A stretch of 63,085 nt of DNA, the filler included, from Aduncisulcus paluster (lineage: Eukaryota): assembly GCA_024181965.1 (NCBI GenBank). It is 36 parts of 36 records of this genome, joined end to end, with 100 filler letters (N's around TTAATTAATTAA, not from the genome) between each part and the next. Parts side by side here need not be neighbours in the genome. Positions count along the whole stretch, not along the records: positions 48,971 to 50,000 come from BQXS01002861.1; 35 more parts are not named here. One strand, given 5' to 3'. The notes below the pieces were generated by a model, which saw only the letters and a list, made by a program, of their open reading frames with translations, was not told where the DNA came from and did no database searches. Below are positions 4,446 through 50,316 of this stretch, in pieces. Each line of letters opens with the position of its first letter. Position 1 is the stretch's first letter. The position numbers and the translations under genes were made by a program.

Positions 4446-4464
4446 TAATTATTTTTATAATTTT

Positions 4465-4494
4465 AAAGTCCAAGTTTCTAACTTGGACTTTTTT
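4465..4494 (+). terminator. Rho-independent terminator
   Basis: AAAGTCCAAGTT-TCT-AACTTGGACTTT followed by T run. Confidence 0.8.
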
Positions 4495-4495
4495 A

Positions 4496-4524
4496 TTGAC
4501 TTTGTATTCTTATTCTAATACAAT
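4496..4524 (+). promoter_or_regulatory. Putative sigma70 promoter
   Basis: TTGACT-N17-TACAAT upstream of ATG 4552. Confidence 0.55.
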
Positions 4525-4551
4525 GATACCAACTAAACTACAGGAAACACC

Positions 4552-4667
4552 ATGAACATAGACAAAGAACAAATTGAACAAGCTTTATTAGTAGTATATC
4601 AAAAGAATTTAGTTTTTTTGAAAGAAAATTTTTCTGATATATTTCTAGAAGTAGATCGACTTTCTCA
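4552..4667 (+). CDS. N-terminus of probable motility-associated factor (Maf) glycosyltransferase
   Basis: MNIDKEQIEQALLVVYQKNLVFLKENF; the YQKNL.FL pattern and position beside flagellin fit Maf; only 38 codons visible. Confidence 0.45.
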
Positions 4668-4767
4668 NNNNNNNNNNNNNNNNNNNNNNNNNNNNNNNNN
4701 NNNNNNNNNNNTTAATTAATTAANNNNNNNNNNNNNNNNNNNNNNNNNNNNNNNNNNNNNNNNNNNN

Positions 4768-9192: not shown

Positions 9193-9292
9193 NNNNNNNN
9201 NNNNNNNNNNNNNNNNNNNNNNNNNNNNNNNNNNNNTTAATTAATTAANNNNNNNNNNNNNNNNNNNNNNNNNNNNNNNNNNNNNNNNNNNN

Positions 9293-11941
9293 ACACTCAC
9301 AATAAGCTCCAGCACCTTCATTCTGACAAGAACCATGGCCACATTCGGGAGTACATACAGGATCGCTACATGTATCACCGCCCCAACCTGCGGAACAATA
9401 GATAACATCATTCACACAGATACCATGCCCGGCCTCCATATCAATGCATGCAACGGTATTGCAATCATCGCCAGTGTAACCGGCGTCACATTCACACACA
9501 TTTGCTTTTCCATCAATACTCGAGGAAATACAGGTTCCATTCACACAAATAGGATCACACGTGGGAGAAGTACAATCGGTGAGACCGAGCTCCCATCCAA
9601 GGTCACAGAGACAAGCACCTGTACCATCACCATTATCGACACATTCTCCATAGGGACCACAGGCATTCACAGCGTCGGGACATTGTGGAATAGAGCAATC
9701 AGAGCCACCCCAATGCTCCGCATTGCTACACTCACAGATAGGTACGGCTCCTTCAGTATTACAAGTACCATGGTCAGGATCACATGGAGGATCACATTGG
9801 CCTGCAACACAATCACCAGATAAAGGATCGACAGAGTAACCAAGCACACACTTACAAACGTGATCTTCAAGATCATCATCTGTGAGAACACACGCTCCAT
9901 CGCCACAGTTACCGTCACACGTGGGAATATTACAAGTTGTGCCAGTCCACGGAATACCTTCACAATCGCAAGAAAACACTCCATCATTCTCTGTACAACT
10001 TCCCCCATTTGAACATGCTGGAGTACAAGTTAGAACTTCACACTGATTTTCTCCGTTAAGAGTATAACCATAACTACACTTACATTCATGATTTCCAGTC
10101 TCAATATTTTCGACACAGGTTCCATAAGAACCACATCCATCTCCTAAATTACAAATAGGGATTTCACAAACATCTCCTGTCCAATATAGGGAAGGGCAGA
10201 CACAGGATTGCCCTGAACAATATCCACCATTCAGACAATCGAGTGTACACTCTCCTTGTGGGGGCGTATCACAAGAATCCCCTTCATAATTATCGGTGCA
10301 AACTAAGACACCATCGATGCACACACCGTGTAAAGTATTATATGTCCCACACCGATCCTCAGAACAGTCACTTCCAGTCCACTGGGAAAAACAGACACAT
10401 TCGGGCTCATCAGAATCATTTAAGATGCAATATCCATGTCCATTGCAATCACAATCAGGTATTTCACAGAAGTCTCCTGTCCAATCATCAGTACAGAAAC
10501 ACGAACCATTGTAGCAAACTCCACCATTAGCGCAAGGAGGACTACATGATTGTATTGTACATTCCATTTCAAAAGATTCGTTTTCATAACCGGAATCACA
10601 CACACATCCTGAAGTATCAGTCACAATATCGTATACACATGTGGCGTTGGCTCCACACAACGAATCACAGTCTGGTTTTATACATACCCGATCTTCAATT
10701 GAAGTAGATTCTTCGTCATCCCAGAGCCACCCATCATCACAGCTACAATAAGCAACATCAAGAATTGTAGAATACACACAAGATCCACTTCCACAATAAT
10801 TATTGCATGTAACCTCAGTACACTGTCCTGATGAGTCTTCTGCCCAATATTCCCAACAATTACAAAAGAAGTCAGTAGCATCGAGGCCACTGGCACAGTC
10901 TCCATTGATACAATCCATAGTACATCCGGTCACACTGTCACATTGTGACCATCCAAGGCTGTTAAATGTAGTATCTGTAGTTTCCCATCCTTCTAAGCAT
11001 TCACATTCGAATATTTCACCATTATATGTGCATTCTGAACCACCAATACCACAATCACAATCGGGAACTGAGCAGAAATTATCCTCACCTATTGCCCAAT
11101 TTTCATCACAGTAGCACTCAAATACTTCTCCATCAAAGTCATAAGTACATATTCCATGAAGACAGTCTCCTCCACATCCAGCGGGTTTTTGACAACTACC
11201 ATCATCATCTGCTTCCCAATCGGCAGATGAAGAACAATCACAATAGAAACTAGACTCCACATCGTCATAAGCACACGTACCATTGAGGCAAAGAGGCTCA
11301 CATCCCACAGGAGTATCACAAGCATCTCCATCCCATCCAGTATCACAACTGCAACCAAAATCTCCTTCATAATAAGAACAAGATCCATGCTCACAAGTGG
11401 AAACACAGCCAGTTGGGTCATTACAATTATCATAATCGGTGCCAAGATAATCCCAACCTGTTAGACACTCACAGGTCAGTTCGTCAGTCATACTGTTATA
11501 TGTCCAATTTCCATGGTTGCACCCTTCAAGACTAACAGGGGTATAACAAGGAACGATATCGCCCACAGCTGTACCTTCAATTACAGCTGAAGGAGTATGA
11601 GCCCAACCTTCATCGCAAATACAGACTCTAGTATCATCGACAAGAGCACAACCGTTTGCAGCAAAACCGCAGTCGGGACATTGAAGCTCATCACAAGCAT
11701 CTCCTGTCCAATAGGAATTTTCACAATCGCATTTATATGTTGACTCTAAAATACATTCCCCATGCACACAGTCATTGACACACGTTTGGCTACCACAGGA
11801 AGTTCCCTCCCATCCACTATCACAAACACATTCTACGTCAGAAAGGTCTTCTAAAAATAGACAAGTACCATGAGTTGTGCAGGTGGAACCACAATCTAAT
11901 ACAGTGCATCGATTATCATCATCCATTGTAAAAAAATCATC
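9293..11941 (-). CDS. Cysteine-rich multi-EGF-repeat (tenascin-like) eukaryotic surface protein, partial
   Basis: Over 20 repeats of C..GxC....CxCxxGWxGxxC; uninterrupted frame of about 880 aa. Confidence 0.9.
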
Positions 11942-12041
11942 NNNNNNNNNNNNNNNNNNNNNNNNNNNNNNNNNNNNNNNNNNNNTTAATTAATTAANNN
12001 NNNNNNNNNNNNNNNNNNNNNNNNNNNNNNNNNNNNNNNNN

Positions 12042-13959
12042 GTACGAATCACTGGCACATACAACATACCATGAACCAGACCCAGGTTTGGTCTCAGCAC
12101 AGACCTTGTTATCAGAAAGACTAGGAATGGGATCCGAGTCTGAACATCCGCAGGGTTGATTGGAAACATTTATGTTCAAGTCAGGAGAAGAACTAAAGAT
12201 ATCCTCAAAAATTGTCTGAAGATCATCTCCACAGATATAATTATTGGCCAAGTCAATGCTACTCCAAGAAGTATTGCTGGACAAAGCAAACAATGGGGAA
12301 GGATCAGAAATGGCACATCCTCTTGCATTGAGAGAGGTTAAATTTGTAAGACCAGAAGAGACAATAGGAGTAAGGGATGCAAGAAGAGGATTTAAGCTGA
12401 TATTAAGAATGGTCAAAGTTTCTGCTTGAATTGAGAGGTCTGGAATTGTTTGTAAATTACAATTGAGCAATGAAAGGGCTTCTAGATTTGGCATTTCAGC
12501 AAGAATGTCAGGATAATTCTCAAATGTATCAATTGGAGAACTTCTCCACGAGAAATTTTTCATATTTTCCTTTTGACTTGTTGTCAATGAATCAATTGAT
12601 GTGAGTAAATTGTTGTCTCCTCCAATAACAAGTTGTTCAATATCAGGAAGATATCCATTACCGACATTCTTAGCAAACCCATCATTATTCACATTTGAAA
12701 AGGTACAATGAAAGCCTTTGAGTGATGTGGGGAGGATATATTCCTCAGAAGGAAGAATTATTGAGGTTTTCAAAATTGCCAAAACCTCCAAAGATGTTAA
12801 TGAAGTGATGTTGGGCAAATAAGAAAGACTTGAATTCCTACTTAAATTTAATTCTACTAAATTCGTGAGAGTTGATAATAAATCAAGATGAATATCATCC
12901 GAATCAGCAGAAAAAACACTGGAGAAATCAATCAATTTAATCCCGCCAAGGTGCTCAATACCTGATAAATCATCGATAGGAAGAGATGAATCATTATATT
13001 GAATCTGAGGATAATATTGAGAGTCCATGGACACAGAAACCAGAGTTTTTAGAGAAGCAACACTGAAAAGGGAAGGAGTGTCGGCTGTTCGATGGATATA
13101 GTTTACAGTTCCATCATAATCATTAAATAAATCAGCTACATAATCATGCAAGTTATTATCAACTATCACTTGCTGACACTCTCCAGTAGAATATGTAACA
13201 CCATCAATCACTTCATCACCAAGATATCTACACTCATATCCATATTCACATCCTCCAGAACAGTTCGTGGTTTGGGATGTTGTTTGCATGCATGTAAAGT
13301 CCTCAGCAGATGTGTATGACGTGTATGAATCACTGGCACATACAACATACCATGAACCAGATCCAGGAAGAGTCTCAGCACAGACCTTGTTGTCAGTAAT
13401 CGGAGTGCATGAGGAATCAGAGGTATATGCGATCGAAGAACAACCAGTAGAGTCACACGTTTGATTAGTTGCAAGATCAGATCCAAGATCAAGACTAAAC
13501 CCAGCAACTCCATGATTCTTGAACTTCTCAGCAAGATCTTCAGTGGACTCGGAGGAACCACACAGATCTTATTGCCAACAACAGAAATGGTCAGCAGGTT
13601 CGGCAAGGAATACAATGGGGAAAGGTCTGAAATGGAACAGTTGGTACAGATAAACGTTTCGAGATAGATGAGTTCACTTGAAATGATTGGATAGACAGAT
13701 GAGATGCCCCCATTGTTCGAGAGGTCTATGAAGGTCAGATAAGCTGAGGAGGCGGAGAAGTCAGGAATGGAAGACAAACCAATATTGTCAAACTTGACAC
13801 TATGCAACGAAGACATGGCATTAAGAGTGAGCTGAAGGTCTGAAATTGAAGTCGTGTCAGCAATGTACAGTGTCTCCAGGGATGTACTAAGAGAATCAAT
13901 CGAAGTGATAGATGTTGTGTTTCCAAGATCAATCATCTTCAAACCACTAAGGTGACTCG
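12042..13959 (-). CDS. Eukaryotic LRR protein with repeated Cys-rich module; frameshift near 13560
   Basis: LxxLxLxxN repeats; module NKVCAET.PGSGSWYVVCASDSY occurs twice; frame switches at ATC TGT GT GGT. Confidence 0.8.
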
Positions 13960-14059
13960 NNNNNNNNNNNNNNNNNNNNNNNNNNNNNNNNNNNNNNNNN
14001 NNNTTAATTAATTAANNNNNNNNNNNNNNNNNNNNNNNNNNNNNNNNNNNNNNNNNNNN

Positions 14060-15067
14060 AGACAAACTGATGAAACAGCAACCGAAGAAGAGGCTTCAGT
14101 GAGAACTACCGGCTTCTCTAGATCAATCAGTACCCTTGGAACACCCTCAGCATCTTCGAGACCTACCCATAACCATCATAATCGCTCACTCTCCATGCAA
14201 TCCAATGAACAGCTCCACATAGGCTCGACACAGATAACCCCTCCAAGGCCAAGATCCTCTACAGCACCCAGGATTAGACGCCGAACCCCCCCACAAGGAA
14301 TAATAATCTCTGAACGTAGTCCCAGCATCCACATTGATACAAGAGAAAGACACCTACCCCCACTAGTCACGACAGAAAACATAACTTCACAGCAATCCGC
14401 ATCAATGATCACCTCCATTACCTCACCTTCCACTGCATCCTCCTCCTCTCCATCATCATCCCCCTCCCCATCATCATCAGCAACCCAATCTTATGATTAC
14501 GGTACCGAGTACTCATACGATACCCAGACTAGATCAGCTACAATTTCCATTATCGAAGAACAATCTGTCCACCCCGATCGTCTCCAGACTCGCTCTGAAA
14601 CAGAGACTCATGACCGGAGCCCAATACATACATTATATGAAACTTCGACACCCCCAACAGCTTCCCCAATTCAAACACTTCCATCACCACACTCCTTTCA
14701 GGATCATACTATCATCGAAGAACAACACACTCATTCCGATCGTCCCCAGAATCGATCTGAAACAGAGATGCGTGATCGGAGCCCAATACAGGCAACATAT
14801 GAAACTTCGAGAATCCCAACAGACTCCCCCATTCAATCACGACCAAGTCCCGTTGCAGTGCCTCCTCATACCACCACCAATATGTCACCGGTACAAGTGG
14901 ACATATCCCCAACAGCCCCTCTGATACCGGAAAACATCCAACAAGAGCCAGCGTCAACACATATTCAGACTCAGACTGAGACTATCGACGATCATCGAAG
15001 CGTAGAAGAAGCTGTACCAGAAATTAGATCCTCCCACATCCATGTTGTTCCCGAAAGAGTACGATAC
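14060..15067 (+). CDS. Ser/Thr/Pro-rich low-complexity eukaryotic protein, partial, with internal duplication
   Basis: Open frame across the whole contig; IIEEQ...DR.Q.RSETE..DRSPI...YETS twice. Confidence 0.65.
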
Positions 15068-17092
15068 NNNNNNNNNNNNNNNNNNNNNNNNNNNNNNNNN
15101 NNNNNNNNNNNTTAATTAATTAANNNNNNNNNNNNNNNNNNNNNNNNNNNNNNNNNNNNNNNNNNNNCTTCTCAAAGATCGTGAGCGACAGCGAAATCGA
15201 GATCGATCGCCCAACTCGGTTTCTCTGCAACAAGAGGCTGAAAGGATATTCTGTGATCAACAGGGACGCTTAAATGTTACCCCTATCTCTCTGTCGACCA
15301 CTGGAGTATTCCACCCCAGTTCCCTCAACTTCCTCCTTGCCTTCTCTAGGGCTTATGGAAACAAGACGAAAATGCACACCTCTGATGGACACTCTGTGTT
15401 CATGAAGCCCCTGAAATTCTTCTTTGCGAAGGCTGCTATTGCCATTGGAAAGAGAATAGCTCACGCCCATTTGACTACGTCTCTGGGTCGGGTTGCTGGC
15501 GGAGGCTTCTGCACTTCGTCTCGGAAGTAATAAGGGTGCTGGTGGTGACAGTCTGATGCTGCAGTATTTGCAGTTACCTGACTTCTGATGTTACCCTAAT
15601 GTGATTACTTTGAGTAGTTACCCATTTCGATCCATCAGCATATTTTGATATTCTCCATTAAACTGAAGTGAACTATACCTACATTCTCTAATACCCAATT
15701 TTTAATCAATACTTGGTTTCATTGCTTCCTATTCACTCTTGACTCCTTTCTAAAATGACTTAGCTTATTTCATGTTTCAGGGCTTGGACCTGCGAGGGGA
15801 TTAAGCTTATTCCCCTCGTTTTTGGAAAAATTTGGCCTTATTCCCCTCGTTTTCGAAATTTTGACAAAACATGACATGTTTTGAACGATTTTCGTTGCAC
15901 TAGATCGAATCACAATTTAATTCTTGATTCTCATTAATGGTTACCAAATTTTAATAATAATTATCAACTCTACATGTTGTATATTGGGTTGTTTATTGTA
16001 TTGTTGATTGAATTGCACTCCACTTGTGACTGAAGACAATTTCCAGACCAACTGAAACAAGACAAAGCACAAAACTATATCATAACTTTATTCATCATGA
16101 TACTTTTAGCCCTTTTGTCTGCAGATCCTGGAAATCGATTCTGGACTATGATTTCCTGGTTCAAAAGCACTGAGTCAACCTAGAGCTGATACTGACACTA
16201 ATTTTCCAGGAAAGTGTTCAACAGCTCCAACTTCTCCCTTTAAATGAAATTTCAATGAATGAGAGAAAGTAGGGATTAAGTTACTCTTGTTGGCGGAGAA
16301 ACAATGATTCTAATTGTAAAATTGATGCTATTCATTTGTATTTTTGCTTCAATATTCATAATTTTCGCACATAATTCTACAATTCTATTCAAACCAGGAA
16401 GCATGAGTCATGTCTTTCAAAACAACCACAGAACAATCATATCCACGGTGAGTAGAACATTAATTGGACTTAGTAGAGCATTTATTCTTCCAAATTAAGC
16501 TATTTCTGTGACATTTGGAAAATGTAAATCTAAAAATAGATTTTCTAAAAATAGAAATGACATTTTTGTAATGCCGTTATTTTTCCATTATTTTCATCTC
16601 TCAGTGAGGTTAAAATCAAACTTTTCTCTTCAGTTTCTCATCAATTAGTAAACGGTCATAATCCAAGGTTTTTACAATTCCAGCCTTTTTGCAATCCCTT
16701 TAACAACATCGCTTTCTATGTTATGGATGTCTCTCGAGGTGGATTGCTCTCTTGATGTCAGATTAAGGTTTCCCACATCCTTTCTTTGGCGGCATTTCAG
16801 GCTGATTTCAATCTATTTTAAGGTCTGTTCAAAGACTCATTTATTCAAAAATCTAGATCTATTCACCTTTCTCTCCATTCATGCATATTAACTCCACTTT
16901 GTCCCAATGGTATAGTTGACATAACCGTTCTTGCTGCAACGAATTCATCTGTCGGCAGAAACACAAGAGAATAAATACCTTAATCCATTCGGGACCATTG
17001 CAATGGAAGTTACATCTTCACCTCTAATGCCTCGATGAGAAAGATCAGTGAATATCTCTATGATCCAGTATTCTAACTCATCAATATATCCA

Positions 17093-18119
17093 TTATTCTT
17101 CTTTCTCCCTATCCAATCCTCTCGATTCAAGATAATCCCGAGATTCAATAGAACTCTGCTTGGTTGAAGAGATACTCAAAGAATCATATTCATCTGTTAA
17201 TGTAATTATGGAATGTGAACCACTACTTGTTCCTCTTTCACGTTCATCTTTATGTAACATATAAGAAGGCATATCTCTGTTATCCTTTTCAGTGCTTTGA
17301 AGTTTTGAAGACATTGATAATATTGATTGAGTTCCATGTCCCATATCTCTTCCACTTTGTTCTTCACTTTCTTTTTCACTCTCATCATGATCTCTATCAT
17401 CAATAATATCATGTGATTTAATTGTAGATTCTTGTACTTCCTCACGACTCATTGGACCACCAATAATAGTTCCAGAATCAAAATATTTCTGTTTTTGTTC
17501 TATGATAATATCATCAATAGATGGACATTCAAATCCTTCTCCAATCTCTGGCAGTAAATGTTTGATGCTTTGCACTTTCTTACGAGCTTTATGGACACTC
17601 ATACGTTTGTCAACATCGAGTTGGGTGAGTCCTGTGAAAACTTCATTCAAACATTCATGAACAGGTTGGAATTTACCTCCTTCAAGGGTTAATAATGATT
17701 TAAACAAATGAGATTGACTAAGTTTTGGACACATATTCTTTTCCATCAGACCCATTAATACTCCCATAATCTCTAAATTAATCCTATCTCCCATGTATTT
17801 CTTAATGACTTCTCTGAATATGGGCAATGAAACAAAAGGATGTTCACAAAAGAATAAAGCGAGAATAGACATTCCAAGAGAATATCCATCACTCTTCTGA
17901 GATTGCTTGCCAGCTAAAAGGGTTTCATAAGAGTTGTATACAAGAGTTCCACATTTAGATGTGTTTTGATTTGAAGTTTCCTTTTTTTCTTTCTTTTCAA
18001 ACTCAACGGGCTGAAACGAACTTGATTTGGTAGTTGTTGAAGATGATATGGAATCTAAGATCTGTGCCAATCCAAGATCAGAGAGAACAACAGTGCATTT
18101 CTTTGAATCAGGATCAACA
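17093..18119 (-). CDS. Atypical eukaryotic protein kinase, C-lobe and tail
   Basis: VVLSDLGLA (DFG equivalent), CGTLVYNSYE (APE equivalent), KSDGYSLG (subdomain IX), KRMS (subdomain XI). Confidence 0.8.
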
Positions 18120-18219
18120 NNNNNNNNNNNNNNNNNNNNNNNNNNNNNNNNNNNNNNNNNNNNTTAATTAATTAANNNNNNNNNNNNNNNNNNNNNNNNN
18201 NNNNNNNNNNNNNNNNNNN

Positions 18220-19346
18220 GAATTAAATCAGCACTTAATACAATTAGATATTGTATAGATAATGATTGTGCTGTTATTATTGCATCGCATTTTGGAAGAC
18301 CAAAAAAAGGTTATGAAGAAAAATACTCTTTAAAACCAATTGCCAAAAGACTACACACTCTTTTAAAGCAAGAGATCAAAATGGCTCCAAATGTTGTATG
18401 TGATGAAACAATCTCAATTGCAAATGATCTACAAAGTGGAGAAATTTTACTTTTGGAAAATATGAGATTTGAACCAGGTGAGACAAACAATGATCCAGTT
18501 TTAGCAAAAACATTAGCTGATATGGCAGATGTTTTTATCAACGATGCTTTTGGTGTTTCTCATAGAGCTCATGCCTCAGTTGAAGGTATTGCAAAACATT
18601 TTGATATTGAACATAAAGCAGCTGGTTTTTTACTAGCAAAAGAGATAAAGTTTTTTTACCATATTATTGAAGCACCAAAACGACCATTTGTATCGATTGT
18701 TGGTGGTTCTAAAGTATCAGGAAAACTTGAAGCACTTCGTAATCTTGTACCAAAAGTTGATAAAATAATTATTGGTGGTGGTATGGCATTTACTTTTCTC
18801 AAAGCTCTTGGTTATGAAATAGGAAATTCACTTGTAGAAGATGAGCTTATTCCTGAAGCACTTACTATTATGGAAGAAGCTAAAAAATTGGGTGTAAAAT
18901 TTTATTTACCTGTAGATGTAATAGCTGCTGAAGCTTTTGATAGTGAAGCATTTGCAAAAGCTGTAACAATTCAAGAGATTCCAAAAGGGTGGATGGGATT
19001 AGATATCGGACCTGCTACATCTACACTATTTGCTCAAGCATTAGAAGATGCACATACTATTTTATGGAATGGACCAATGGGTGTTTATGAGATGGATAAG
19101 TTTGCAAAAGGAAGTACAAAAATTTCTCATGCAGTTGCTTCTTCGTATGCTACAACTGTTGTAGGTGGTGGAGATACTGCCGATTTAGTACGACGAACTG
19201 GNNNNNNNNNNNNNNNNNNNNNNNNNNNNNNNNNNNNNNNNNNNNNNNNNNNNNNNNNNNNNNNNNNNNNNNNNNNNNNNNNNNCTTTAGAATTAATAGA
19301 GGGTAAAGTTTTACCAGGTGTTAAAGCACTTATTATTGAAAAGTAA
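18220..19346 (+). CDS. pgk: Phosphoglycerate kinase, 5' truncated
   Basis: [43 protein letters not shown]. Confidence 0.97.
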
Positions 19347-19358
19347 ACTAAATAATTG

Positions 19359-19611
19359 ATGAGAATATTACTAAATGGAGTAGGGCGTATTGGCAAAGCA
19401 ATTTTAAGAATTGCTGAGTCTAAAAGTAGTTTTGAAATAGTTGCAATAAATGAGTTAAATACAAATATTAAAAATATAGCATATTCTATTAATTATGATT
19501 CAACTTATGGAAAAATTGAAGATAAATATAAAGTTGATGGCGATTGTATTATCAACAGTAAAAGTACCATACATATTTTTAATTGTGAAAATATTTTAGA
19601 TATAAATTTAG
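19359..19611 (+). CDS. GAPDH-family dehydrogenase, N-terminus
   Basis: ILLNGVGRIGK, IVAINE, YDSTYG. Confidence 0.85.
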
Positions 19612-19768
19612 NNNNNNNNNNNNNNNNNNNNNNNNNNNNNNNNNNNNNNNNNNNNTTAATTAATTAANNNNNNNNNNNNNNNNNNNNNNNNNNNNNNNNN
19701 NNNNNNNNNNNAAAAGAGATAATAAGCGTAAAAGAGTTAATGGATAAACTAACTAACGGCGAATAACT

Positions 19769-21235
19769 TTGAATAAGTTTTGCAAGACTTTTTTAGTTAT
19801 TATATTATTATCACAATCTTTATTTGCTGTAGGAAGTAAATATTATCAAGAGAAGTTTGATACTACAAAAAAACTTTATCTTGGTTCTATTATGTCTAAC
19901 AATAAGGCAAAAGAGATTGAATATTTAAAAAAATTAATCCGTTATGGTGATAAATTAAATGTAAACACTTTAAAGTATAAAAGAGAACTAAACAGATTAG
20001 ATGATACAGCTGTTATAAAAAATAGAACAACCCAATCAGTAATTAAATTTAAACCTAAAAAACAAGTTGTTCAAAAGAAAAAAGTACAAACAAGAAAAAA
20101 AACTCAAACTACGCAATCTTCAAATAGTAAAAAATACTCTATTACATCTGTGATACAAAAAGACAATTCGATAATTATTAATTTCAATAAAAATATTACT
20201 AGTTCTTATATAAAATTTAGTGAACATAAAAAAGGCAACTTTTATTATGATGAATTTCTATTTAAAGGCAATTTTAAAGATGCTTATCCAACTAAACTTT
20301 CGATGAGAGGTGTTTATAAAATAAGTGTTTACCAAAAAAAAGTTGATCTCTTATCTATTACTTTAAAAAATAAACAGAACCTTAAAACAATTTATATTAT
20401 TAATAAACGACAAATTATTATAAAAGTATTGAATTTAGATAAAAAAACTGTATCAACATCAAATAAAAAGCAATATAAAACAAATAGAAATATTTTATAT
20501 CCTGCTAAAAAAGTTATCGTTATAGACCCAGGTCATGGAGGTCACGATGGTGGTGCTAGTTACAAAAGAAAAAGATTTGAAAAAAACATCACATTGAATA
20601 TAAGTAAATACCTTAAAAAAGAGCTAGAAACTTTTGGTTTTAAAGTATATTTAACAAGAAAAAAAGATCGATATTTAAAATTATCATATAGAACAAAATA
20701 TGCGAATAGTAAGCATGCTGACATTTTTATTTCAATTCATGCAAATGCTGCACGAAAAAGTCGTGCACATAAAGCACATGGCGTTGAGTCGTATTTTTTA
20801 TCACCTGCTAGAAGTGCTAGAGCTAAAAGGGTAGCAGCACTAGAAAATAAAGGTGATATGACTGGAATGGGATNNNNNNNNNNNNNNNNNNNNNNNNNNN
20901 NNNNNNNNNNNNNNNNNNNNNNNNNNNNNNNNNNNNNNNNNNNNNNNNNNNNNNNNNNNNNNNNNNNNNNNNNNNNNNNNNNNNNNNNNNNNNNNNNNNN
21001 NNNNNNNNNNNNNNNNNNNNNNNNNNNNNNNNNNNNNNNNNNNNNNNNNNNNNNNNGAGGAGTGAGAGAAGGACCATTTTGGGTATTAGTTGGTGCTCAA
21101 ATGCCATCTGTTTTAGTTGAAGTTGGTTATATATCTCATCCAAAAGAGGGATATAGAATCTCCACAAAAGCATACCAAAAATTAATAGCAAAAGGTATAG
21201 CAAAAGGTATAGAGAGTTATTTTATAAAAAACTAA
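19769..21235 (+). CDS. amiA: N-acetylmuramoyl-L-alanine amidase (Amidase_3)
   Basis: Signal peptide; IVIDPGHGG, FISIHANA, MPSVLVEVGYISH. Confidence 0.9.
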   Translation: MNKFCKTFLVIILLSQSLFAVGSKYYQEKFDTTKKLYLGSIMSNNKAKEIEYLKKLIRYGDKLNVNTLKYKRELNRLDDTAVIKNRTTQSVIKFKPKKQVVQKKKVQTRKKTQTTQSSNSKKYSITSVIQKDNSIIINFNKNITSSYIKFSEHKKGNFYYDEFLFKGNFKDAYPTKLSMRGVYKISVYQKKVDLLSITLKNKQNLKTIYIINKRQIIIKVLNLDKKTVSTSNKKQYKTNRNILYPAKKVIVIDPGHGGHDGGASYKRKRFEKNITLNISKYLKKELETFGFKVYLTRKKDRYLKLSYRTKYANSKHADIFISIHANAARKSRAHKAHGVESYFLSPARSARAKRVAALENKGDMTGMGXXXXXXXXXXXXXXXXXXXXXXXXXXXXXXXXXXXXXXXXXXXXXXXXXXXXXXXXXXXXXXGVREGPFWVLVGAQMPSVLVEVGYISHPKEGYRISTKAYQKLIAKGIAKGIESYFIKN

Positions 21236-21303
21236 TGTTTAATTAACCATATTTTAATAAAATTTCACTATAATACGCCACTAAATTAAAACAAGGAAAC
21301 ACA

Positions 21304-21434
21304 ATGTTACAAGGTATACTTAGAGATAGTATCGTAAAACAATCAACAAAACAACTAAGACGAGATGGTTATCTAATTGCTAACATTTATGGAAAAGGTT
21401 GCGAAAATATTAATGCAGCTTTTAAATTAAATGA
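21304..21434 (+). CDS. rplY: 50S ribosomal protein L25, N-terminus
   Basis: MLQGILR...[17 protein letters not shown]. Confidence 0.85.
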
Positions 21435-21534
21435 NNNNNNNNNNNNNNNNNNNNNNNNNNNNNNNNNNNNNNNNNNNNTTAATTAATTAANNNNNNNNNN
21501 NNNNNNNNNNNNNNNNNNNNNNNNNNNNNNNNNN

Positions 21535-22303
21535 GAAGTACCGCACCGAGTTCGCACAGGGAATTGCCATTACGTCGTCTATACATCCGACACCCGAAAC
21601 GCACGTCGAGGCTTGCCATTACGGCAAGGGTTCCAACGCGATGCATCTGATGGCGGTACCCCTGATCGACGGAGAGCGCCATCGGTTGTTGCGCTTCCTG
21701 CTGTTCTGTCTGCGGCATCCCGTGAGGCTGTTGCACAGCCTCTGGGTCCGGCGCGCGTCGGAGAAGACCATCTCGTTGTTGGTGATGCAGGCGGCCGACA
21801 ACTCGTTGACCACTTACCGCAAACGCGGACTGTTTGGAACCAAACTCACCTCGAAACAAGGTCGCGGAGAGCCGAATCCGGTATGGATCCCCGACGGACA
21901 CGACGTGGCCCGGCGAGTCGCCGAGAAGATCGGCGGTTACGCGGAAGGCACCGCGGGCGATTTGGTGAAGGTCCCGATGACCGGGCATTTCATCGGTGGG
22001 GTGACGATCGGCGAGGACGCCGACCACGGGGTCGTCGATCCGTATCAGCGACTCTATGGTTATCCCGGCCTGCATGTGGTCGACGGCTCCACCATCACGG
22101 CCAATCTCGGCGTCAATCCGTCACTGACCATTACCGCTCAATCCGAGCGTGCGATGGCGTTCTGGCCCAACAAGGGCCAGGCCGACCCGCGCCCCCCGCT
22201 CGGTTCTCCCTATCGCCGAATCAGGCCCGTTCAGCCGAGCATGCCAGCCGTACCGGCCTCGGCGGTCGGTGCCTTGCATCTACCGCTGGCGGACATCTCG
22301 TGA
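21535..22303 (+). CDS. choD: Cholesterol oxidase / GMC oxidoreductase, 3' part (mycobacterial)
   Basis: TGHFIGG, GVVDPYQRLYGYPGLHVVDGS, NLGVNPSLTITAQSERAM. Confidence 0.85.
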
Positions 22304-23059
22304 TCAGTCACTCCGTGCGCATCGCTGCGTTGCGTGCCGAACGCTCGGCGGTACAAGACTTCTGTAGGAACCTCACACCCGCGGAATGGGACGCGCCGAG
22401 CATGGCCGATGGCTGGCGTATTCGTGACGTCGTCGCGCACATGGGCGCAACCGCGCATGCGTTTCTTACGCCGGGGTTGATCACCGTTATGAGAACGAAA
22501 GAGATTGAGCGACTCAACGACGGCGACGTTCACGCGCGCGCGGACCGCCCGCCCGCCGAGCTACTCGATGAGTACGTCGCANNNNNNNNNNNNNNNNNNN
22601 NCTCGAATCCCGCTGGGCGAGCTCGGATACTTCCCCTTGCGTCTCATGCCGTCGACAGCGATCTTCGATTGGCATGTCCACCTGCGTCACGACATCGCCC
22701 CCGCCCTCGGACGACCCGGGCCGCCAACTGACGAATCACGCATGACTGCCGTCGTCGAATGGCTGACAGCGCTGCTGCAGCAGTCGCATCAGCAGCAGCT
22801 GAGCTGGCTTCGCGAGCCGGTCGCGCTGACGCTGCGCGGACAGGGCGGTGGGTCCTGGATCATCGAGCCCCGCACCAACCGCGCCAAGTTTCGGGTTCGA
22901 CAGTGCGAGGGCGACCGGGCCGCTGCCCACATCGCGGGCCGGACCGAGGACTTCCCTGTCTGGGCCACTACCCGCAAGCCATGGCGCGAATGCGATGTCG
23001 CGATCACTGGAGACGATCAGCTGGCGGCCAGGGTGCTGGATGCCATCAATTTGGTGTGA
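22300..23059 (+). CDS. Mycothiol-dependent maleylpyruvate isomerase (MDMPI/DinB-like) family protein
   Basis: EWDAPS..GWRIRDVVAHM and FDWHVHLRHDI; GTG start overlaps the choD stop. Confidence 0.8.
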
Positions 23060-23140
23060 GCACGGTCTTCAGTCATTCGCGGACCGCGAAGGCATGCACC
23101 GACTCTCGGAGGGCGAGACGCTCCGGCGTGGTCCATGCCC

Positions 23141-23400
23141 TCATTTCGTGTTGCTTCCGGTATCGACCAGACGTGCCGGAATCTCGACGTGGCGGGAGCG
23201 GAGCCACTCCGCCAGGCCCTTCGCTTGCGGATCGAACCGCGCGTTGTAGGCGACACCCTCGCCGAGTAGTCCCTCGATGACGAAGTTCACGGCACGCAAA
23301 TGCGGCAGCACGGTTCGCGTGATCGGCATGGTCGCGGCCTCCGGGAGCAGTCGACGTAGTTCCTCGACGGTGAGGGCATGCACCAGCCACCGCCACGCGT
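23141..23400 (-). CDS. Acyclic terpene utilisation AtuA-family protein, C-terminus
   Basis: LPHLRAVNFVIEGLLGEGV...RFDPQAKGLAEWLRS. Confidence 0.75.
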
Positions 23401-23500
23401 NNNNNNNNNNNNNNNNNNNNNNNNNNNNNNNNNNNNNNNNNNNNTTAATTAATTAANNNNNNNNNNNNNNNNNNNNNNNNNNNNNNNNNNNNNNNNNNNN

Positions 23501-25227
23501 AAGCGCTGGCGCATGCCGGCGAGACCCTGATGGGCAAATTCCGCGACGGCATGCCGGTGAGAGCGGAAGCGGTGACGCTGATCCTGTCCTCGATCGACCG
23601 CATCAAGGAGATATTGGCCGGCCTCGAGGCGACCGAGGCCGAGCCCGAAGGCAACGACCGCGATCTGATCGATCAGTTGGAAGCGATGGTCGAGCGCGGC
23701 ATGGCGGCAATGGCCGCCGGTGATGCCGCTGCCGAAGAAGATGTGCCGGTGGTCGAAGCGCCGTCGGTGCAGGCGGATATGGCCGAAGGCACGCTGGTGG
23801 TGCAGACGCTGGAGCGCCCCTTGCGTCCGGGCGAGGTCTCGCTCGACGAGCTCGAGCGCGCCTTCCGCGAGACCGAGACCGAAGTGGCCGCACCTGCGCC
23901 GGCGCCTGCCGCGAAGGTCGTTGCCGCAGCCCCCGCCGCCGAGCCGGCTGAAGCTGCGAAGAAGCCGGCGCGCAAGGCCGCCGCCGAAGACGTCCAGGAA
24001 GGCGACAAGATCGCCAACCAGTCGATCCGGGTCAACGTCGACACCCTCGAACACCTGATGACCATGGTCTCCGAGCTGGTCTTGACCCGCAACCAGCTCT
24101 TGGAGATCTCGCGCCGCAACGAGGACACCGAGTTCAAGGTGCCGTTGCAGCGGCTCTCCAACGTCACTGCCGAGCTGCAGGAAGGCGTCATGAAGACGCG
24201 GATGCAGCCGATCGGCAATGCCTGGCAGAAGCTGCCGCGCATCGTCCGCGACCTCTCCGGCGAACTCGGCAAGCAGATCGAGCTCGAGATGCACGGCGCC
24301 GACACCGAGCTCGACCGCCAGGTGCTCGACCTGATCAAGGATCCGCTGACGCACATGGTGCGCAACTCCGCCGATCACGGGCTGGAGACCACCGCCGAGC
24401 GCCTCGCCGCCGGCAAGCCGGAGCAGGGCACCATCCGCCTCAGTGCCTATCACGAAGGCGGCCACATCATCATCTGCATCGCCGACAATGGCCGCGGGCT
24501 CAACACCGANNNNNNNNNNNNNNNNNNNNNNNNNNNNNNNNNNNNNNNNNNNNNNNNNNNNNNNNCTCCAGAACGGTCTCGTCACCGAGGCTGAATTGGA
24601 GAAGATGACCGAGGCCCAGATCCACAAGTTCATCTTCGCGCCGGGCTTCTCGACCGCAGCGCAGGTGACCTCGGTGTCCGGCCGCGGCGTCGGCATGGAC
24701 GTGGTGCGAACCAATATCGACCAGATCGGCGGCACCATCGACATCAAGAGCGTGGCCGGCGAGGGCGCCAGTGTCACCATCAAGATCCCGCTGACCTTGG
24801 CGATCGTCTCCGCCCTGATCGTGGAAGCCGGCGGCGACCGTTTTGCCATTCCGCAACTGTCCGTGGTCGAGCTGGTGCGGGCCCGCGCCAACTCCGAGCA
24901 CCGCATCGAGCGGATCAAGGACACCGCGGTCTTGCGGCTGCGCAACAAGCTGCTGCCGCTGATTCATCTCAAGAAGCTGCTGAGGATCGACGACGGCGCC
25001 ACCACCACCAGCGATGCCGAGAACGGCTTCATCGTGGTGACGCAGGTCGGCAGCCAGACCTTCGGCATCGTGGTCGACGGCGTGTTCCACACCGAGGAGA
25101 TCGTGGTCAAGCCGATGTCCACAAAACTGCGGCACATCGACATGTTCTCCGGCAACACCATTTTGGGCGATGGCGCCGTGATCATGATCATCGACCCCAA
25201 CGGCATCGCCAAGGCGCTCGGCGCCTC
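23501..25227 (+). CDS. cheA: Chemotaxis histidine kinase, internal part (Bradyrhizobium-like)
   Basis: SIRVNVDTLEHLM, HMVRNSADHG, SGRGVGMDVV, IPLTLAI, CheW-like domain. Confidence 0.95.
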
Positions 25228-25327
25228 NNNNNNNNNNNNNNNNNNNNNNNNNNNNNNNNNNNNNNNNNNNNTTAATTAATTAANNNNNNNNNNNNNNNNN
25301 NNNNNNNNNNNNNNNNNNNNNNNNNNN

Positions 25328-25543
25328 AAAGTAAACTATATAGCAAAAGCACTTATTCAAAAAGGTTACATAAAAGCTGGTAACTTCGTCAACGCAGAAG
25401 ATAAAACTAAGTATAAATACCTTCTGACAGATGAAGGGCTTCAACAAAAAATAGCAATCACAAAAAAATTTATCAAAATAAAAAAAGCCGAATATGAAAA
25501 AATGCAAGAAGAACTTGATAGATATGAAAGCACAGTTAAGTAA
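25328..25543 (+). CDS. EPS-associated MarR-family regulator, 3' part (not in ORF track)
   Basis: [20 protein letters not shown]...[14 protein letters not shown]...KKAEYE; stop abuts ugd start. Confidence 0.75.
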
Positions 25544-25544
25544 A

Positions 25545-26686
25545 ATGGAGAAATCACAAGTGAAAAATAATACAAAATACAAAATCGCCATAGCAGGTAC
25601 AGGATATGTAGGTCTATCAAACGGTGTACTTCTATCACAACACAATGAAGTAGTAGCATTAGATATCATAGCTTCTAAAGTTGAACTTTTAAATAATAAA
25701 AAATCCCCAATAGAAGATAAAGAGATAAGTGAATATCTACAAAAAGATAGTTTAAATTTTCGAGCAACGCTAGACAAAAAAGAAGCATACGAAAATGCAG
25801 ACTTTGTGATCATCTCAACACCTACAGACTACGACCCCCAAACAAACTACTTCAACACAAAATCTATAGAATATGTCATAGCAGATGTTTTAGAGATAAA
25901 CCCAAATACAACAATGGTGATTAAAAGTACAGTACCAGTTGGATATACAAAAGAGATAAATAAAAAGTTTGATACTACAAATATCATCTTTAGCCCAGAG
26001 TTTTTAAGAGAGGGGTTGGCACTACAAGACAACCTTTATCCAAGTAGAATCATCGTAGGTGAAAAGTCAAAAAGAGCAGAACTATTTGCAAGCCTTTTAG
26101 CACAAGGAGCAAAAAAAGAAAATATAGATATCCTTTTTACAGACTCAACAGAAGCAGAAGCAGTAAAACTGTTTTCAAATACATACTTAGCTATGAGAGT
26201 AGCATACTTCAATGAGCTAGACTCATACGCCCAAACGCATAATCTTGATACAAAACAGATCATAGAAGGTGTAGGACTAGATCCAAGAATTGGTACGCAC
26301 TACAACAACCCAAGCTTTGGGTATGGTGGATACTGTTTACCAAAAGATACAAAACAACTAAGAGCAAACTACCAAGATGTACCAAGTAGTATAATTGGGG
26401 CAATCGTAGAGAGTAATAGCACAAGAAAAGATTTTATAGCAGATAGTGTGATGAGAAAACTTGAACTCACTCCTGCAAACCCAAATAATATCCACACTTC
26501 AAAAAAAGTAGGGATATTTAGACTTACGATGAAAAGTGGTTCAGATAACTTTAGAAGCTCAGCTATACAAGGTATCATGAAGCGTATCAAAGCCAAAGGT
26601 ATAGAGGTAGTGATCTATGAACCGGTACTAGAAGAAGAAACATTTTTTAATAGTAAAGTGATCAAAGATTTTGAAGAGTTTAAATC
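25545..26686 (+). CDS. ugd: UDP-glucose 6-dehydrogenase, 3' truncated
   Basis: [37 protein letters not shown]. Confidence 0.93.
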
Positions 26687-26786
26687 NNNNNNNNNNNNNN
26701 NNNNNNNNNNNNNNNNNNNNNNNNNNNNNNTTAATTAATTAANNNNNNNNNNNNNNNNNNNNNNNNNNNNNNNNNNNNNNNNNNNN

Positions 26787-27599
26787 GAGCAAATTGGTCT
26801 AGAAGTTGTTTTAGGACATCATGAAGTTGCACAAGGACAACACGAGATTGGTATTGTTTACAATACATTAGTTGAAGCAGCTGATAATGTGCAAAAACTT
26901 AAATATGTTGTTAAAATGGTTGCTCATTTAAATGGTAAAACGGCAACATTTATGCCAAAACCAATTCATGGTGATAATGGTAATGGAATGCATGTACACC
27001 AATCAATTTGGAAAGATGGAGTAAATACTTTTTATAAAGAAGGTAACTATGGAAACCTTTCTGATGAAGCTAGATGGTATGCTGGTGGTGTTTTTGAACA
27101 TGCTTTTGCAGTTGCTGCATTTACTAATGCTTCAACAAATTCATATAAAAGACTTGTACCTGGTTTTGAAGCACCAAGTATTTTAACTTTTTCAGCTCAA
27201 AATAGATCAGCAGCTTGTAGAGTTCCTTGGGGAGCTGGAGCACCTGCTACTAGACTTGAAATGAGATTCCCAGATTCAACAGCAAATCCATATTTAGCAT
27301 TTGCAGCAATGATGATGGCAGGAATTGATGGGATTAAAAATAAAACTGAACCTGTTGGACCAATGGATGAGGATTTATTCGAATTATCTCTTGATGAGAT
27401 TAGAGAAAAAAATATTCCACAAATGCCAAATACTTTAAGAATGGCTATTGAGGGATTAATTAAAGATAATGATTTCTTACAACCAGTATTTACAAAAGAG
27501 TTTATTGATACATACCAACATTATCAATATGATAGACAAATTTGGCCTTATGAATCGAGACCAACTGCATTTGAAGTGATGACAACATATTCTTGTTAG
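26787..27599 (+). CDS. glnA: Type I glutamine synthetase, 3' part
   Basis: [36 protein letters not shown]. Confidence 0.97.
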
Positions 27600-27615
27600 T
27601 TACTGTAATATATCT

Positions 27616-27650
27616 AAAAAAGATAGAGCATTTGCTCTATCTTTTTTTTT
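27616..27650 (+). terminator. Rho-independent terminator
   Basis: AAAAAAGATAGAGCA-TT-TGCTCTATCTTTTTTTTT. Confidence 0.85.
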
Positions 27651-27766
27651 GCCTAATTATAAGAAAAAAGCCCTTTAACAAGATTTTAAACTTTATTTAG
27701 CTATTATATATGTACTTATGCTACTTATGATTAATGATGTAGTACAGATTAATAAAAAGGGATATA

Positions 27767-27858
27767 ATGGGTTGTAACTTAGATAAATTAACTTCTTTTA
27801 AAGACAACTGTGGGTTTGGGTTAATTGCTCACTTGAAAAATAAACAAACACATAAAAA
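27767..27858 (+). CDS. gltB: Glutamate synthase large subunit, N-terminus
   Basis: SFKDNCGFGLIA with the Ntn-amidotransferase Cys; downstream of glnA. Confidence 0.8.
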
Positions 27859-28031
27859 NNNNNNNNNNNNNNNNNNNNNNNNNNNNNNNNNNNNNNNNNN
27901 NNTTAATTAATTAANNNNNNNNNNNNNNNNNNNNNNNNNNNNNNNNNNNNNNNNNNNNCCCATACGATATAGGTTGATTCCTGTTTCGCTTGATTGCTGC
28001 AGCTCATACTTTTGTAAATAAAAATTGAGAC

Positions 28032-47675: not shown

Positions 47676-48870
47676 ATGGCACGTATCGGAGACGGCGGCG
47701 ACCTGCTGAAATGCTCGTTCTGCGGAAAGAGCCAGAAGCAGGTCAAGAAGCTCATCGCCGGCCCCGGCGTGTACATCTGCGATGAATGCATCGACCTCTG
47801 CAACGAGATCATCGAAGAGGAGCTGGCCGACGCCGACGACGTCAAGCTCGATGAGCTGCCCAAGCCGGTGGAGATCCGGGAGTTCCTGGAGAACTACGTC
47901 ATCGGCCAGGACAACGCCAAGAAGACGCTGGCCGTCGCCGTGTACAACCACTACAAGCGCATCCAGGCCGGCGATAAGGCCCGTGACGCCCGCGGTGAGA
48001 CCGTTGAATTGGCCAAGTCCAATATCTTGATGCTGGGCCCCACCGGCTGCGGCAAGACCTACCTGGCGCAGACACTGGCCAAGATGCTTAATGTCCCGTT
48101 CGCCATCGCCGACGCCACCGCGCTGACCGAGGCCGGGTACGTGGGCGAGGATGTGGAGAACATTCTCCTCAAGCTGATTCAGGCGGCCGACTACGACGTG
48201 AAGCGCGCCGAGACCGGCATCATCTACATCGACGAGGTCGACAAGATCGCCCGCAAGAGCGAGAACCCGTCGATCACCCGGGATGTCTCCGGCGAGGGTG
48301 TGCAGCAGGCACTGCTGAAAATCCTGGAGGGCACGCAGGCGTCGGTGCCCCCGCAGGGCGGCCGCAAGCACCCGCATCAGNNNNNNNNNNNNNNNNNNNN
48401 ACACCACCAACGTGCTGTTCATCGTGGCCGGTGCGTTCGCGGGCCTGGAGAAGATCGTGTCGGACCGCGTCGGCAAGCGCGGCCTGGGCTTTGGTGCCGA
48501 GGTCAAGTCGAAGGCCGATATCGACACCACGGACCACTTCGCCGAGGTCATGCCCGAGGACTTGATCAAGTTCGGGCTCATCCCCGAGTTCATCGGTCGT
48601 CTGCCGATCGTGGCCTCGGTGACAAACCTGGACCGCGAATCACTCATCACAATCCTGTCCGAGCCGAAGAACGCGTTGGTGAAGCAGTACACCCGCCTCT
48701 TCGACATGGACGGTGTCGAGCTGGAATTCAGCCAGGATGCGCTGGAGGCCATCGCCGATCAGGCCATCCACCGTGGCACCGGCGCCCGCGGTCTGCGCGC
48801 CATCATGGAGGAAGTGCTGCAGCCGGTGATGTACGACATCCCGAGCCGCGACGATGTCGCCAAGGTCGTC
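47676..48870 (+). CDS. clpX: Clp protease ATPase ClpX, 3' truncated
   Basis: CSFCGKSQ zinc finger, [24 protein letters not shown] loop. Confidence 0.98.
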
Positions 48871-48970
48871 NNNNNNNNNNNNNNNNNNNNNNNNNNNNNN
48901 NNNNNNNNNNNNNNTTAATTAATTAANNNNNNNNNNNNNNNNNNNNNNNNNNNNNNNNNNNNNNNNNNNN

Positions 48971-49655
48971 CGATCAATCGCTATCCCTAGTGAAAGAGAA
49001 GAAGCATTTCGTGCCTTATCGCGAAGACGCCATCAACTTACAGATTCAATCCGTAGAGTTAAGCAACGCATCAGATCTTTATTTTTGGCTTTGGGAGTTG
49101 CTGAACCAGCAGGCATAGACAGTTGGGGCAAAGCGGCTGTACTTGCAATTGAGCATCAACCACTTTCTGCAGGTGCAACTGAGACTCGTGACAGTCTTCT
49201 CTCTGAACTAAAATACTTCATAATTGCTCAAAAAGAAGTTGATACGAAACTTGAACTACTCGCTAAGGAACAAGACGAAGCAATACGCATTGCTGCAATG
49301 AGGTCCGTTCCCGGAGTCGGAAGAGTTGTAGCAACAACCTTTGCGGCAGAAATCTTTAACCCTAAACGTTTCAACCACAGTAAAGAAGTCACGGCCTACC
49401 TTGGCCTTGCACCGATAGTTCAACAAAGCGGTGCAAGCAAGGGCAAAGCGAACTCTTCGCCCAGTAGGTCAACGGAGGCTACGAAGCTTGCTGGTGGAGG
49501 CAGCATGGGTATGGAAACAAAAAGACACATGGGCGCAAGAATGTTACAATAGAATTTTGGGCAAGCATGGAGTGCCGCAAAAGGCGATTGCTGCGCTTGC
49601 ACGAAAACTTGCTGCTCTGCTCTGGAAACTGAGTCTTCCAGTAGAGACAGCATAA
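48971..49655 (+). pseudogene. IS110-family transposase/recombinase, C-terminal half, +1 frameshift near 49451
   Basis: SVPGVG, AYLGLAP...QSG in one frame; GQRRLRSLLVEAAW...AIAALARKLA in the next. Confidence 0.85.
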
Positions 49656-49656
49656 C

Positions 49657-49841
49657 GGATCGCGAGGGGGTTTTGGTTGCTCCGACAACGACACAAAAAT
49701 GGCGATCCTAAATTGATTTGGTACCGAATCGGTACTTGGTGCCACTGAGCACGAATAAGAAAAGAAGTATCAATTACTTGCACCGTACGGTAAGGGATGA
49801 CTACGGCCTATGAAAATAGGGTTATAGAATTGACGGGGTGC
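49657..49841 (+). ncRNA. Putative bridge/seek RNA in the IS right end
   Basis: Stems GGATCGC/GCGATCC, AATTGAT/ATCAATT, GCACC/GGTGC enclosing internal loops that match the flank and the IS end. Confidence 0.6.
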
Positions 49842-49861
49842 TTGACAACGTGCCGCATAAG

Positions 49862-49900
49862 AAAAATCCCCGCAAAGTTTAACTTTGCGGGGATTTTTTT
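49862..49900. terminator. Bidirectional rho-independent terminator directly beside the IS end
   Basis: AAAAATCCCCGCAAAGT-TTA-ACTTTGCGGGGATTTTT. Confidence 0.88.
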
Positions 49901-49911
49901 GTCTAATTATT

Positions 49912-50000
49912 TTAAGTTCCGATCATTTTCTCAGGTAGATAGAATACGATTTCCGGGAACAATGTTACCAGAATTACCATCAGGACCATGATTATAAAGA
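49912..50000 (-). CDS. TRAP transporter large permease (DctM-like), C-terminus
   Basis: FIIMVLMVILVTLFPEIVFYLPEKMIGT*. Confidence 0.55.
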
Positions 50001-50316
50001 NNNNNNNNNNNNNNNNNNNNNNNNNNNNNNNNNNNNNNNNNNNNTTAATTAATTAANNNNNNNNNNNNNNNNNNNNNNNNNNNNNNNNNNNNNNNNNNNN
50101 CTTGTAACTCTGAAATCATGCTTATTTTAGAAATCGATTTTGCTGTATATATTTATTTTTGAAATTACAATTAGCATGCGTATAAATGTTGTAGGATGCT
50201 TAATTGATGTTTTGTTTGATTTAAGTCCTTCTTATTCCATAGATGCAGTGGCATCTTTGAAAGAAAGGGAAGGATGTTGTAGCCTGCTATGGATAAAAGC
50301 TGATATTCAGCAAACA

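Follow-up and report, generated by a model that had tools for sequence, protein, structure and literature searches.

The DNA analysed here (the window, 63,085 nucleotides, positions 1-63085) consists of short contigs, unrelated to one another, with linkers between them, which are runs of N around TTAATTAATTAA (48872-48971 and 49992-50100 are examples), so that context across a linker is meaningless. GC content along the stretch ranges from 19% to 64%. The features described below lie on a single contig of 1030 bp (48972-50001 only) and are collected in Table 1. They comprise the 3' part of a recombinase gene, a non-coding tail of 208 nt downstream of its stop codon (49657-49864), the right terminus of an insertion sequence (IS) and the host DNA that follows it; the left two-fifths of the element and its left junction are absent from the contig. 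The permease gene in the host DNA has an orthologue in L080 (234-1589), with a match to PF06808 (E 5e-87). On the contig next to the element-bearing one (47676-48870), GC content is high and a ClpX-like gene fragment is found.

Table 1. Features of the element-bearing contig, with positions in the window
Feature	Position	Strand	Basis
IS110-family, IS1111-type recombinase gene, 3' part, ~228 codons	48972..49656	+	Pfam, reading frames, homologues
Predicted target-binding domain (domain 1)	49657..49708	+	Pairs counted on 35 sequences, covariance model, arm-flank covariation
Second, putative donor-type domain (domain 2)	49709..49775	+	Helix counts, 5-mer identity with right end
Variable spacer with small hairpin (49781-84/49789-92)	49776..49841	+	Alignments of relatives
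TTGACA, putative -35 half of a promoter completed only when right and left ends join	49842..49847	+	Relatives, tandem copies in L028
Subterminal inverted repeat, right arm GTGCCGCAT	49851..49859	+	Partner lies off the contig
Right terminus ATAAG, then A-run core	49857..49864	+	End of BLAST homology, flanks in run X1, L028, empty site
Target site: A-tract, GC-rich hairpin of 17-19 bp, T-tract	49862..49900	.	Fold, Rfam, empty site
DctM-type TRAP-transporter permease gene, 3' end, host DNA	49912..50001	-	Stop codon at 49912-14

The recombinase gene is cut at 48972 by the end of the contig and closes with TAA at 49654-56. Its reading follows the frame of 48974 to about 49450 and then the frame of 48972 until the stop, and comparison with four relatives places the frameshift in one extra A at 49451/52. 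The translation matches PF02371 (E 1.7e-13), and only the tail of PF01548 is found (E 0.0042; its 17.3 bits fall short of the 29-bit cut-off), the contig end at 48972 having left just the last ~35 residues of that domain; a full-length homologue, P0005, which is 85% identical, matches PF01548 at E 1.7e-16. The translation also holds GLAPIVQQSG, which fits the IS1111 motif GL-P----S/TG, given as GL-P----SG in section 6 of PMC11187229. At E <= 0.001 there are 102 homologous proteins, nearly all of 353 aa with both Pfam domains; the best is 88% identical over a protein of 353 aa, and those with names are IS110-family transposases of Maridesulfovibrio, Desulfovibrio and Pseudodesulfovibrio. One genome per species was scanned with an alignment (A1) built from 14 homologues; 221 stretches matched, 175 of them encode a relative and 79 loci were kept. 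At the DNA level the window is 84% identical to L001 and L044 over 899 nt. The nearest genome (G001) gave no match to the window, and neither did a plasmid collection in a distant-mode DNA search. Several of the scanned genomes carry many copies of the element; the Pseudodesulfovibrio genome of L013 has more than 30 in all, and two of the loci there (L013 520-653 and 4064-4196), which lie 3.5 kb apart, are different family members of different guide classes. A mangrove metagenome (run X2) has a relative that is less than 90% identical, with its guide and its flank on separate contigs.

The right end lies where the sequence-only reading had placed it: BLAST homology stops at about 49865 (query 894), other flanks in a source-like run discussed below (X1) diverge at 49865-71, and an empty site agrees, the exact last base being ambiguous within 49861-49866. 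The left non-coding part measures ~75 nt in relatives. By our reading of a table of the ends, the left and right subterminal arms (ATGTCGGCAC / GTGCCGCAT) change together across lineages of relatives, with the pairs GGCAC/GTGCC, GGCCA/TGGCC and GGTCCCC/GGGGACC; a repeat search on L001 did not list the subterminal pair because it contains a 1-nt indel. The TTGACA pointed out from the sequence alone stands 17 nt before the end of the core, and its first five letters, TTGAC, are invariant in the 16 sequences of alignment A4; the -10 hexamer, TACCAT, comes from relatives and from the tandem junction of L028 only. There, at 4064-5540, two copies stand head to tail with a three-A core in common and a junction near 4268-4275, and the joined ends read TTGACA, 17 nt and TACCAT, with three A between ATAAG and TACC. 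Such a junction promoter (Pjunc) is a concept set out in section 8 of PMC11187229 and in the ISPpu9 paper (PMC12288879). At the left end of L001 (2932-2946/2990-3004), the element opens with CCATGTCAGCACTCC, which makes up a 15-nt inverted repeat together with the region of the ribosome-binding site and start codon, GGAGGGCTGACATGG, and the two arms co-change in other lineages (ATGCTGGCC/GGCCAGCAT and ATGTTGGCC/GGCCAACAT). This left-end repeat would seem suited to stopping read-through transcripts from being translated, with transcripts from the junction promoter left unaffected.

Taken as a whole, 48972-49864 is very probably the right-hand three-fifths of an IS1111-group (IS110 family) IS with a predicted seekRNA/bridge RNA tail. 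The source of the element is, as probably, a Desulfovibrionaceae-type bacterium, and the predicted RNA lies on the strand of the recombinase gene.

The fold of the 3' tail and the two guide-like domains

The sequence-only reading had described, directly after the stop, a stem (P1; GGATCGC 49657-63 with GCGATCC 49702-08) that closes an internal loop, loop 1, made of a 5' arm GAGGGGGTTTT at 49664-74, a capping hairpin (GTTG 49676-79 and CAAC 49686-89 around CTCCGA) and a 3' arm ACACAAAAAT at 49691-49700. All of these parts were found in place, as were the agreement of the 5' arm with the reverse complement of the flank AAAATCCCCGC (49863-73) at 9/11 positions, one mismatch being a G opposite T, and the presence of ATAAGAAAA both at 49755-63 and at the end junction, 49857-65. 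Within the window alone, the listed features do not exceed chance. The fold of 49657-49790 has -32.8 kcal/mol vs -30.3 +/- 3.1 for shuffled sequence (z -0.81; 47/200 shuffles as good), and the hairpin of 17-19 bp in the flank accounts for the z-score of -4.74 obtained for 49650-49900. In the 63 kb, ATAAGAAAA occurs 3 times vs 1.5 expected, and matches of at least 9/11 to the complement of the flank number 10 vs 18 expected and so are not enriched. At E up to 10, Rfam returned no family for 49657-49800. It is the relatives that lift the observation above chance.

For this comparison, 35 distinct 3' tails were aligned (A2) and pairs were counted for four helices taken from the window. Across the 35 sequences 90.9% of 726 cells pair vs 83.0 +/- 0.6% in shuffled alignments, with 0/500 shuffles as high; controls in which the partner was slid along pair in 24-43% of cells, at most 43.4%. 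In the capping hairpin of loop 1, both sides are changed in 16, 18 and 10 sequences, and that of loop 2 (helix 4) has 15 compensatory sequences. P1 shows compensatory changes at 5/7 pairs, yet just 79.7% of its cells are paired. The GTACCG/CGGTAC hairpin (helix 3) has zero compensatory changes among the 35 sequences. Over 35 distinct 3' ends, P1 and the pair of capping hairpins therefore persist in homologues and show compensatory changes, as the sequence-only reading had anticipated. Run over 80 sources (549,543 bases), a covariance model (R1) gave 79 hits, all of them on the gene's strand and directly downstream of a recombinase gene; the window has a single hit, at 49656-49788 with 115.6 bits, and the sources that lack one (L039, L047 and L077) all end at or inside the gene.

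Two further stems proposed at the outset are present in the window and, on these alignments, do not show the conservation of the first ones. Among 16 main-family sequences, 54% of cells are paired in the outer stem of domain 2 (AATTGAT 49711-17 with ATCAATT 49769-75) and 59% in the third stem (49780-84 with 49837-41), and neither has a clear excess over slid controls. The outer stem is seen only in the closest relatives and was not recovered by RNAalifold on MAFFT alignments; for 10 distant relatives RNAalifold proposed an invariant CCTT/AAGG closure instead.

Domain 2 repeats the layout of domain 1, namely arm, GG, hairpin, G, arm. It holds the GTACCG/CGGTAC hairpin at 49721-35, the segment GGTACTT at 49731-37 and a capping hairpin of GTGC (49739-42) with GCAC (49749-52), followed by the 3' arm of loop 2, ATAAGAAAA, which equals the right end plus core (ATAAG-AAA). 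In all 30 lineages for which both parts are available, the 5-mer of loop 2 (ATAAG or ATAGG) is that of the right end, and the identity spans 8-9 nt down to ~47-50% protein identity. ATAGG occurs in both places in four lineages, where it is kept over long branches; these form one clade (support 95/88), so that only one coordinated change is counted. On the other side of the loop, GGTACTT is, by our own reading, complementary at 6/9 positions to AA-TACC of the joined left end, which is almost invariant across relatives. From the identity of its 3' arm with the right end and the partial complementarity of GGTACTT to the left one, domain 2 is predicted to bind the donor in circular form. The putative donor guide read from the window keeps its identity with the right end in all 30 lineages, the evidence being invariance plus one coordinated change. 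Separately, the right ends of L004 and L067 read CATAAGAG-AAAAG..., where the A-run is preceded by two additional letters, and their loop 2 still reads ATAAGAAAAGG, so that the register is shifted between the two. A suggested tie between the loop-2 hairpin and the subterminal repeats was dropped, as the change from GTGC to GCGC does not track that from GGCAC to GGCCA.

The strongest competitor to a donor-binding role is that only domain 1 guides, as a short seekRNA, and that domain 2 is a scaffold or processing element while the recombinase reads the ends through the subterminal repeats. For ISEc11, an 82-nt short seekRNA sufficed for movement, and sections 9, 10 and 14 of that account (PMC11187229) report no donor match. 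The single evolutionary event behind the agreement of loop 2 and the right end and the invariance of the left end fit this alternative as well, and GGTACTT, the putative left-end guide, may be locked in the GTACCG/CGGTAC hairpin instead. Against it stand the 8-9-nt identity in 30/30 lineages, including the coordinated A-to-G change, the repeated layout of the two domains and the donor-complementary loops that Durrant et al. report in IS1111 elements (PMC11208160, in the parts on that group). We regard guiding by domain 1 alone as unlikely, though as the alternative that deserves most attention, and keep the donor-type reading of domain 2.

Copies of the element and their insertion sites

The sequence-only reading had called the element a natural RNA-guided recombinase. 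Sequence comparison supports this description for the element family, and it does not demonstrably extend to the window copy, which is truncated and frameshifted. Those two defects would also suit a dead relic whose RNA is no longer used, a reading that we consider improbable. The truncation is that of a contig end, since a Logan contig extends 250 nt past 48972. The source-like run X1, which contains 79% of the words of the stretch, has a contig without the extra base (6554 of 13582 summed depth at 49450), and an in-frame version therefore exists; intact and broken copies side by side, or an assembly error, are possible at this position in X1. No RNA sequencing run turned out to contain the stretch, and run X3, presumed to be of RNA, gave nothing; this blank speaks neither for nor against a relic. 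Depth in the same run is about 9,200-28,000 for the element vs 2,205 for the right flank (4-12 times), and three further right flanks depart from that of the window at 49865, 49870 and 49871, each going on, by eye, with a C-rich run and an inverted repeat. The excess in depth and the further flanks indicate that the element is multi-copy in that sample, and they point to recent mobility rather than to a relic.

An empty site was found in G002, a related Maridesulfovibrio genome that also holds L001. It matches window 49862-50001 at 94% without the element and reads ...TTTTAGAC-A8-TCCCCGCAAAG..., that is, AGAC-A8-TCCCCGC vs ATAAG-A5-TCCCCGC at the occupied right junction, with only the A-run in common. 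The insertion lies in an A-tract before a terminator-like hairpin, and by these junctions and the flanks of 78 insertions, which follow the guides, it is site-specific and without real target duplication. The empty site is located between convergent genes, one for a xylose-isomerase-like TIM-barrel protein and the other for the DctM permease. Near the site, Rfam gives only terminator-type matches to the flank hairpin, all below gathering scores. A simple terminator scan did not flag this hairpin, probably because its A/T runs count as stem, and it is therefore called terminator-like from the Rfam matches and the fold only. The target has the appearance of an intrinsic terminator that serves convergent genes from both sides. 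Across relatives, 68 unique right flanks (45 nt) fold at a mean of -15.7 kcal/mol, and the mean for 330 control 45-mers taken at these loci is -9.6 (Mann-Whitney p 4e-11); in 49/68 flanks a helix starts no more than 8 nt from the junction with an energy of -10 or lower, and 144/330 controls reach -10 without the requirement on position. An A-run and a GC stem are common to all targets. Elsewhere in G002 (C1 3196942-3196984 and 733495-733531; L083-L085), hairpins that are 83-85% like the target hairpin of the window are possible alternative landing sites. In one Thermodesulfobacteriota genome, eight copies of a distant relative (L060-L066 and L074) sit in a repeated palindrome, GGGGAAACTTTC..GAAAGTTTCCCC; this target is REP-like, not a terminator, and the guides are re-written to match.

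How the loop 1 arms relate to these sites was assessed with arms and flanks taken from the model alignment (78 unique insertions, 35 guide classes). In the window, the 5' arm (AGGGGGTTTT) is complementary to the top strand of the core and right flank (AAAA-TCCCC...), and the 3' arm (ACACAAAAA-T) has the same sense as the left flank and core and would pair with the bottom strand. Both guides include the A-run and so overlap where the strands would be exchanged. The right guide agrees with its own flank at 8/10 (9/11) positions only, and the 3' arm ACACAAAAA agrees with AGACAAAAA of the empty site at 8/9 positions, the site being that of the related genome, not of the host. Over the classes, the reverse complement of the 5' arm scores 0.765 against the sequence after ATAAG in its own flanks and 0.574 in those of other classes, and the 3' arm, in the same sense, scores 0.864 against the sequence before TACCATG in its own flanks and 0.615 in others. 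When guides were permuted among 30 flank sets, 0/20000 permutations reached the observed sum for either arm. The cognate guide is best or joint best for 15/30 right and 25/30 left flank sets; on the right, another class's guide fits at least equally well for 15/30 classes. Unrelated targets are accompanied by matching arms on both sides in the L060 family (TGGGGAAA / CTTTC), L004, L068, L072 and L052; in the L060 family the arms are ATAAAGTTT and CTGGGGAAAT and the flanks ...TGGGGAAAT and AAACTTTC.... Additionally, at least 7 copies with one guide lie in different flanks that have only the guide-matched letters in common.

The covariation of guide and target that the sequence-only reading had predicted is thus found for both arms. 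That the tail is instead a structured 3' UTR, terminator or attenuator without a guide role, its matches explained by likeness among sites, has very little left to commend it: the targets are compositionally similar (A-run plus GC stem), non-cognate scores already reach 0.57-0.62 and the fold is unexceptional, but the unrelated targets with matching arms on both sides, the absence of any permutation in 20000 that reaches the observed fit and the same-guide copies whose flanks are alike only at guide-matched letters form a covariation that, on these alignments, already contradicts it. With one covariance-model copy per recombinase gene and arms that vary with the flanks, the evidence argues for a guide RNA in the 3' end.

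Proposed mechanism and relation to known systems

In the mechanism that we propose, excision would join the right end of the element to its left end and so create TTGACA-N17-TACCAT. This junction promoter would drive one transcript carrying both the recombinase and the RNA, to be trimmed later. The target of the lineage would be the A-tract at the foot of terminator-like hairpins, and the left junction of the window copy would read ...(A/G)(C/G)AC-A(5-6)-TACCATGTC.... We tentatively suggest that the clade is a "terminator-seeking" branch of IS1111, a proposal that includes the steps on the captured hairpin given here and that we hold to be possible, short of probable. In such a branch the right-flank guide, a GC-rich run plus a U-run, would copy the descending arm and U-tract of a terminator, so that the element would land in the A/T tract at the foot of a two-way terminator between convergent genes. 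Its A-rich end (…AAGAAA) would rebuild most of the U-tract of the neighbouring gene; the captured hairpin would terminate the recombinase-plus-guide transcript and so set the 3' end of a long guide RNA, and the stem-loop of the target might add a structural layer of specificity. No description of IS1111 or IS110 elements aimed at terminators was found in the collection of papers searched; the lineage may already be covered by the target logos in Siddiquee et al. and by Supplementary Table 5 in Durrant et al.

This kind of system was already described in 2024, and the known mechanism is unchanged by our analysis. Specific to the present case are the host group, the natural series of 35 guide classes and the target at the foot of terminator-like hairpins. 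The analysis confirms that guide loops of IS1111 type can be read straight from raw sequence. It also yields a natural series in which 35 guide classes on one conserved scaffold, with known insertion sites, come from anaerobic sulfate reducers and their neighbours, and this series is useful for pairing rules such as arm lengths, tolerated G-T pairs and the A-run core. The system is compact, with a recombinase of ~353 aa and an RNA of ~120-200 nt. For genome biology, the lineage appears to park at terminators between convergent genes, a low-cost site.

IS1111 of Coxiella, the group's founding member, is linked to palindromic repeats; its host and target differ from those described here. Coxiella IS1111 and palindromic MITE repeats are both treated in PMC5896051. 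Closer likenesses are found with the seekRNAs of ISEc11, ISPa11, ISKpn4 and ISPst6 (Siddiquee et al. 2024, PMC11187229), which also come from a non-coding region downstream of a recombinase of ~340-350 aa. According to the sections of that account concerned with these points, its elements share the GL-P----SG motif, subterminal inverted repeats, a promoter found only at the joined ends and targets that are often foldable (REP and attC are examples). In its sections 9 and 14, published IS1111 seekRNAs lie downstream of the gene, and within them the match to the top strand comes 5' of that to the bottom strand. As here, the segment complementary to the top strand precedes the one for the bottom strand, their overlap falls on the insertion point and natural re-direction proceeds through swapped segments. 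In contrast to the elements presented there, those studied here reside in Desulfovibrionaceae and other anaerobes and have as their target an A-tract at the foot of a terminator-like hairpin; moreover, relative to sections 6, 8, 9, 10, 13 and 14 of the same account, the second loop is here read as putatively donor-binding. In that respect the predicted RNA resembles the bridge RNA of IS621 (Durrant et al. 2024, PMC11208160), in which the first loop reads the target and the second the donor, and the portion of that study on IS1111 predicts bridge RNAs in the right end of 93% of such elements. The IS621 RNA, as set out there, lies upstream of its gene, has its left guide on the 5' side of the loop and uses the core CT, whereas in the present family the RNA lies downstream, the order of the arms is reversed and the core is an A-run. 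ISPpu10 (bioRxiv 10.64898/2026.03.19.712850) likewise inserts beside a GC-rich stem-loop in intergenic DNA; in the part of that report dealing with its target, the stem-loop acts as a determinant of its own next to the paired bases, whereas the guide described here would pair with one arm of the stem itself.
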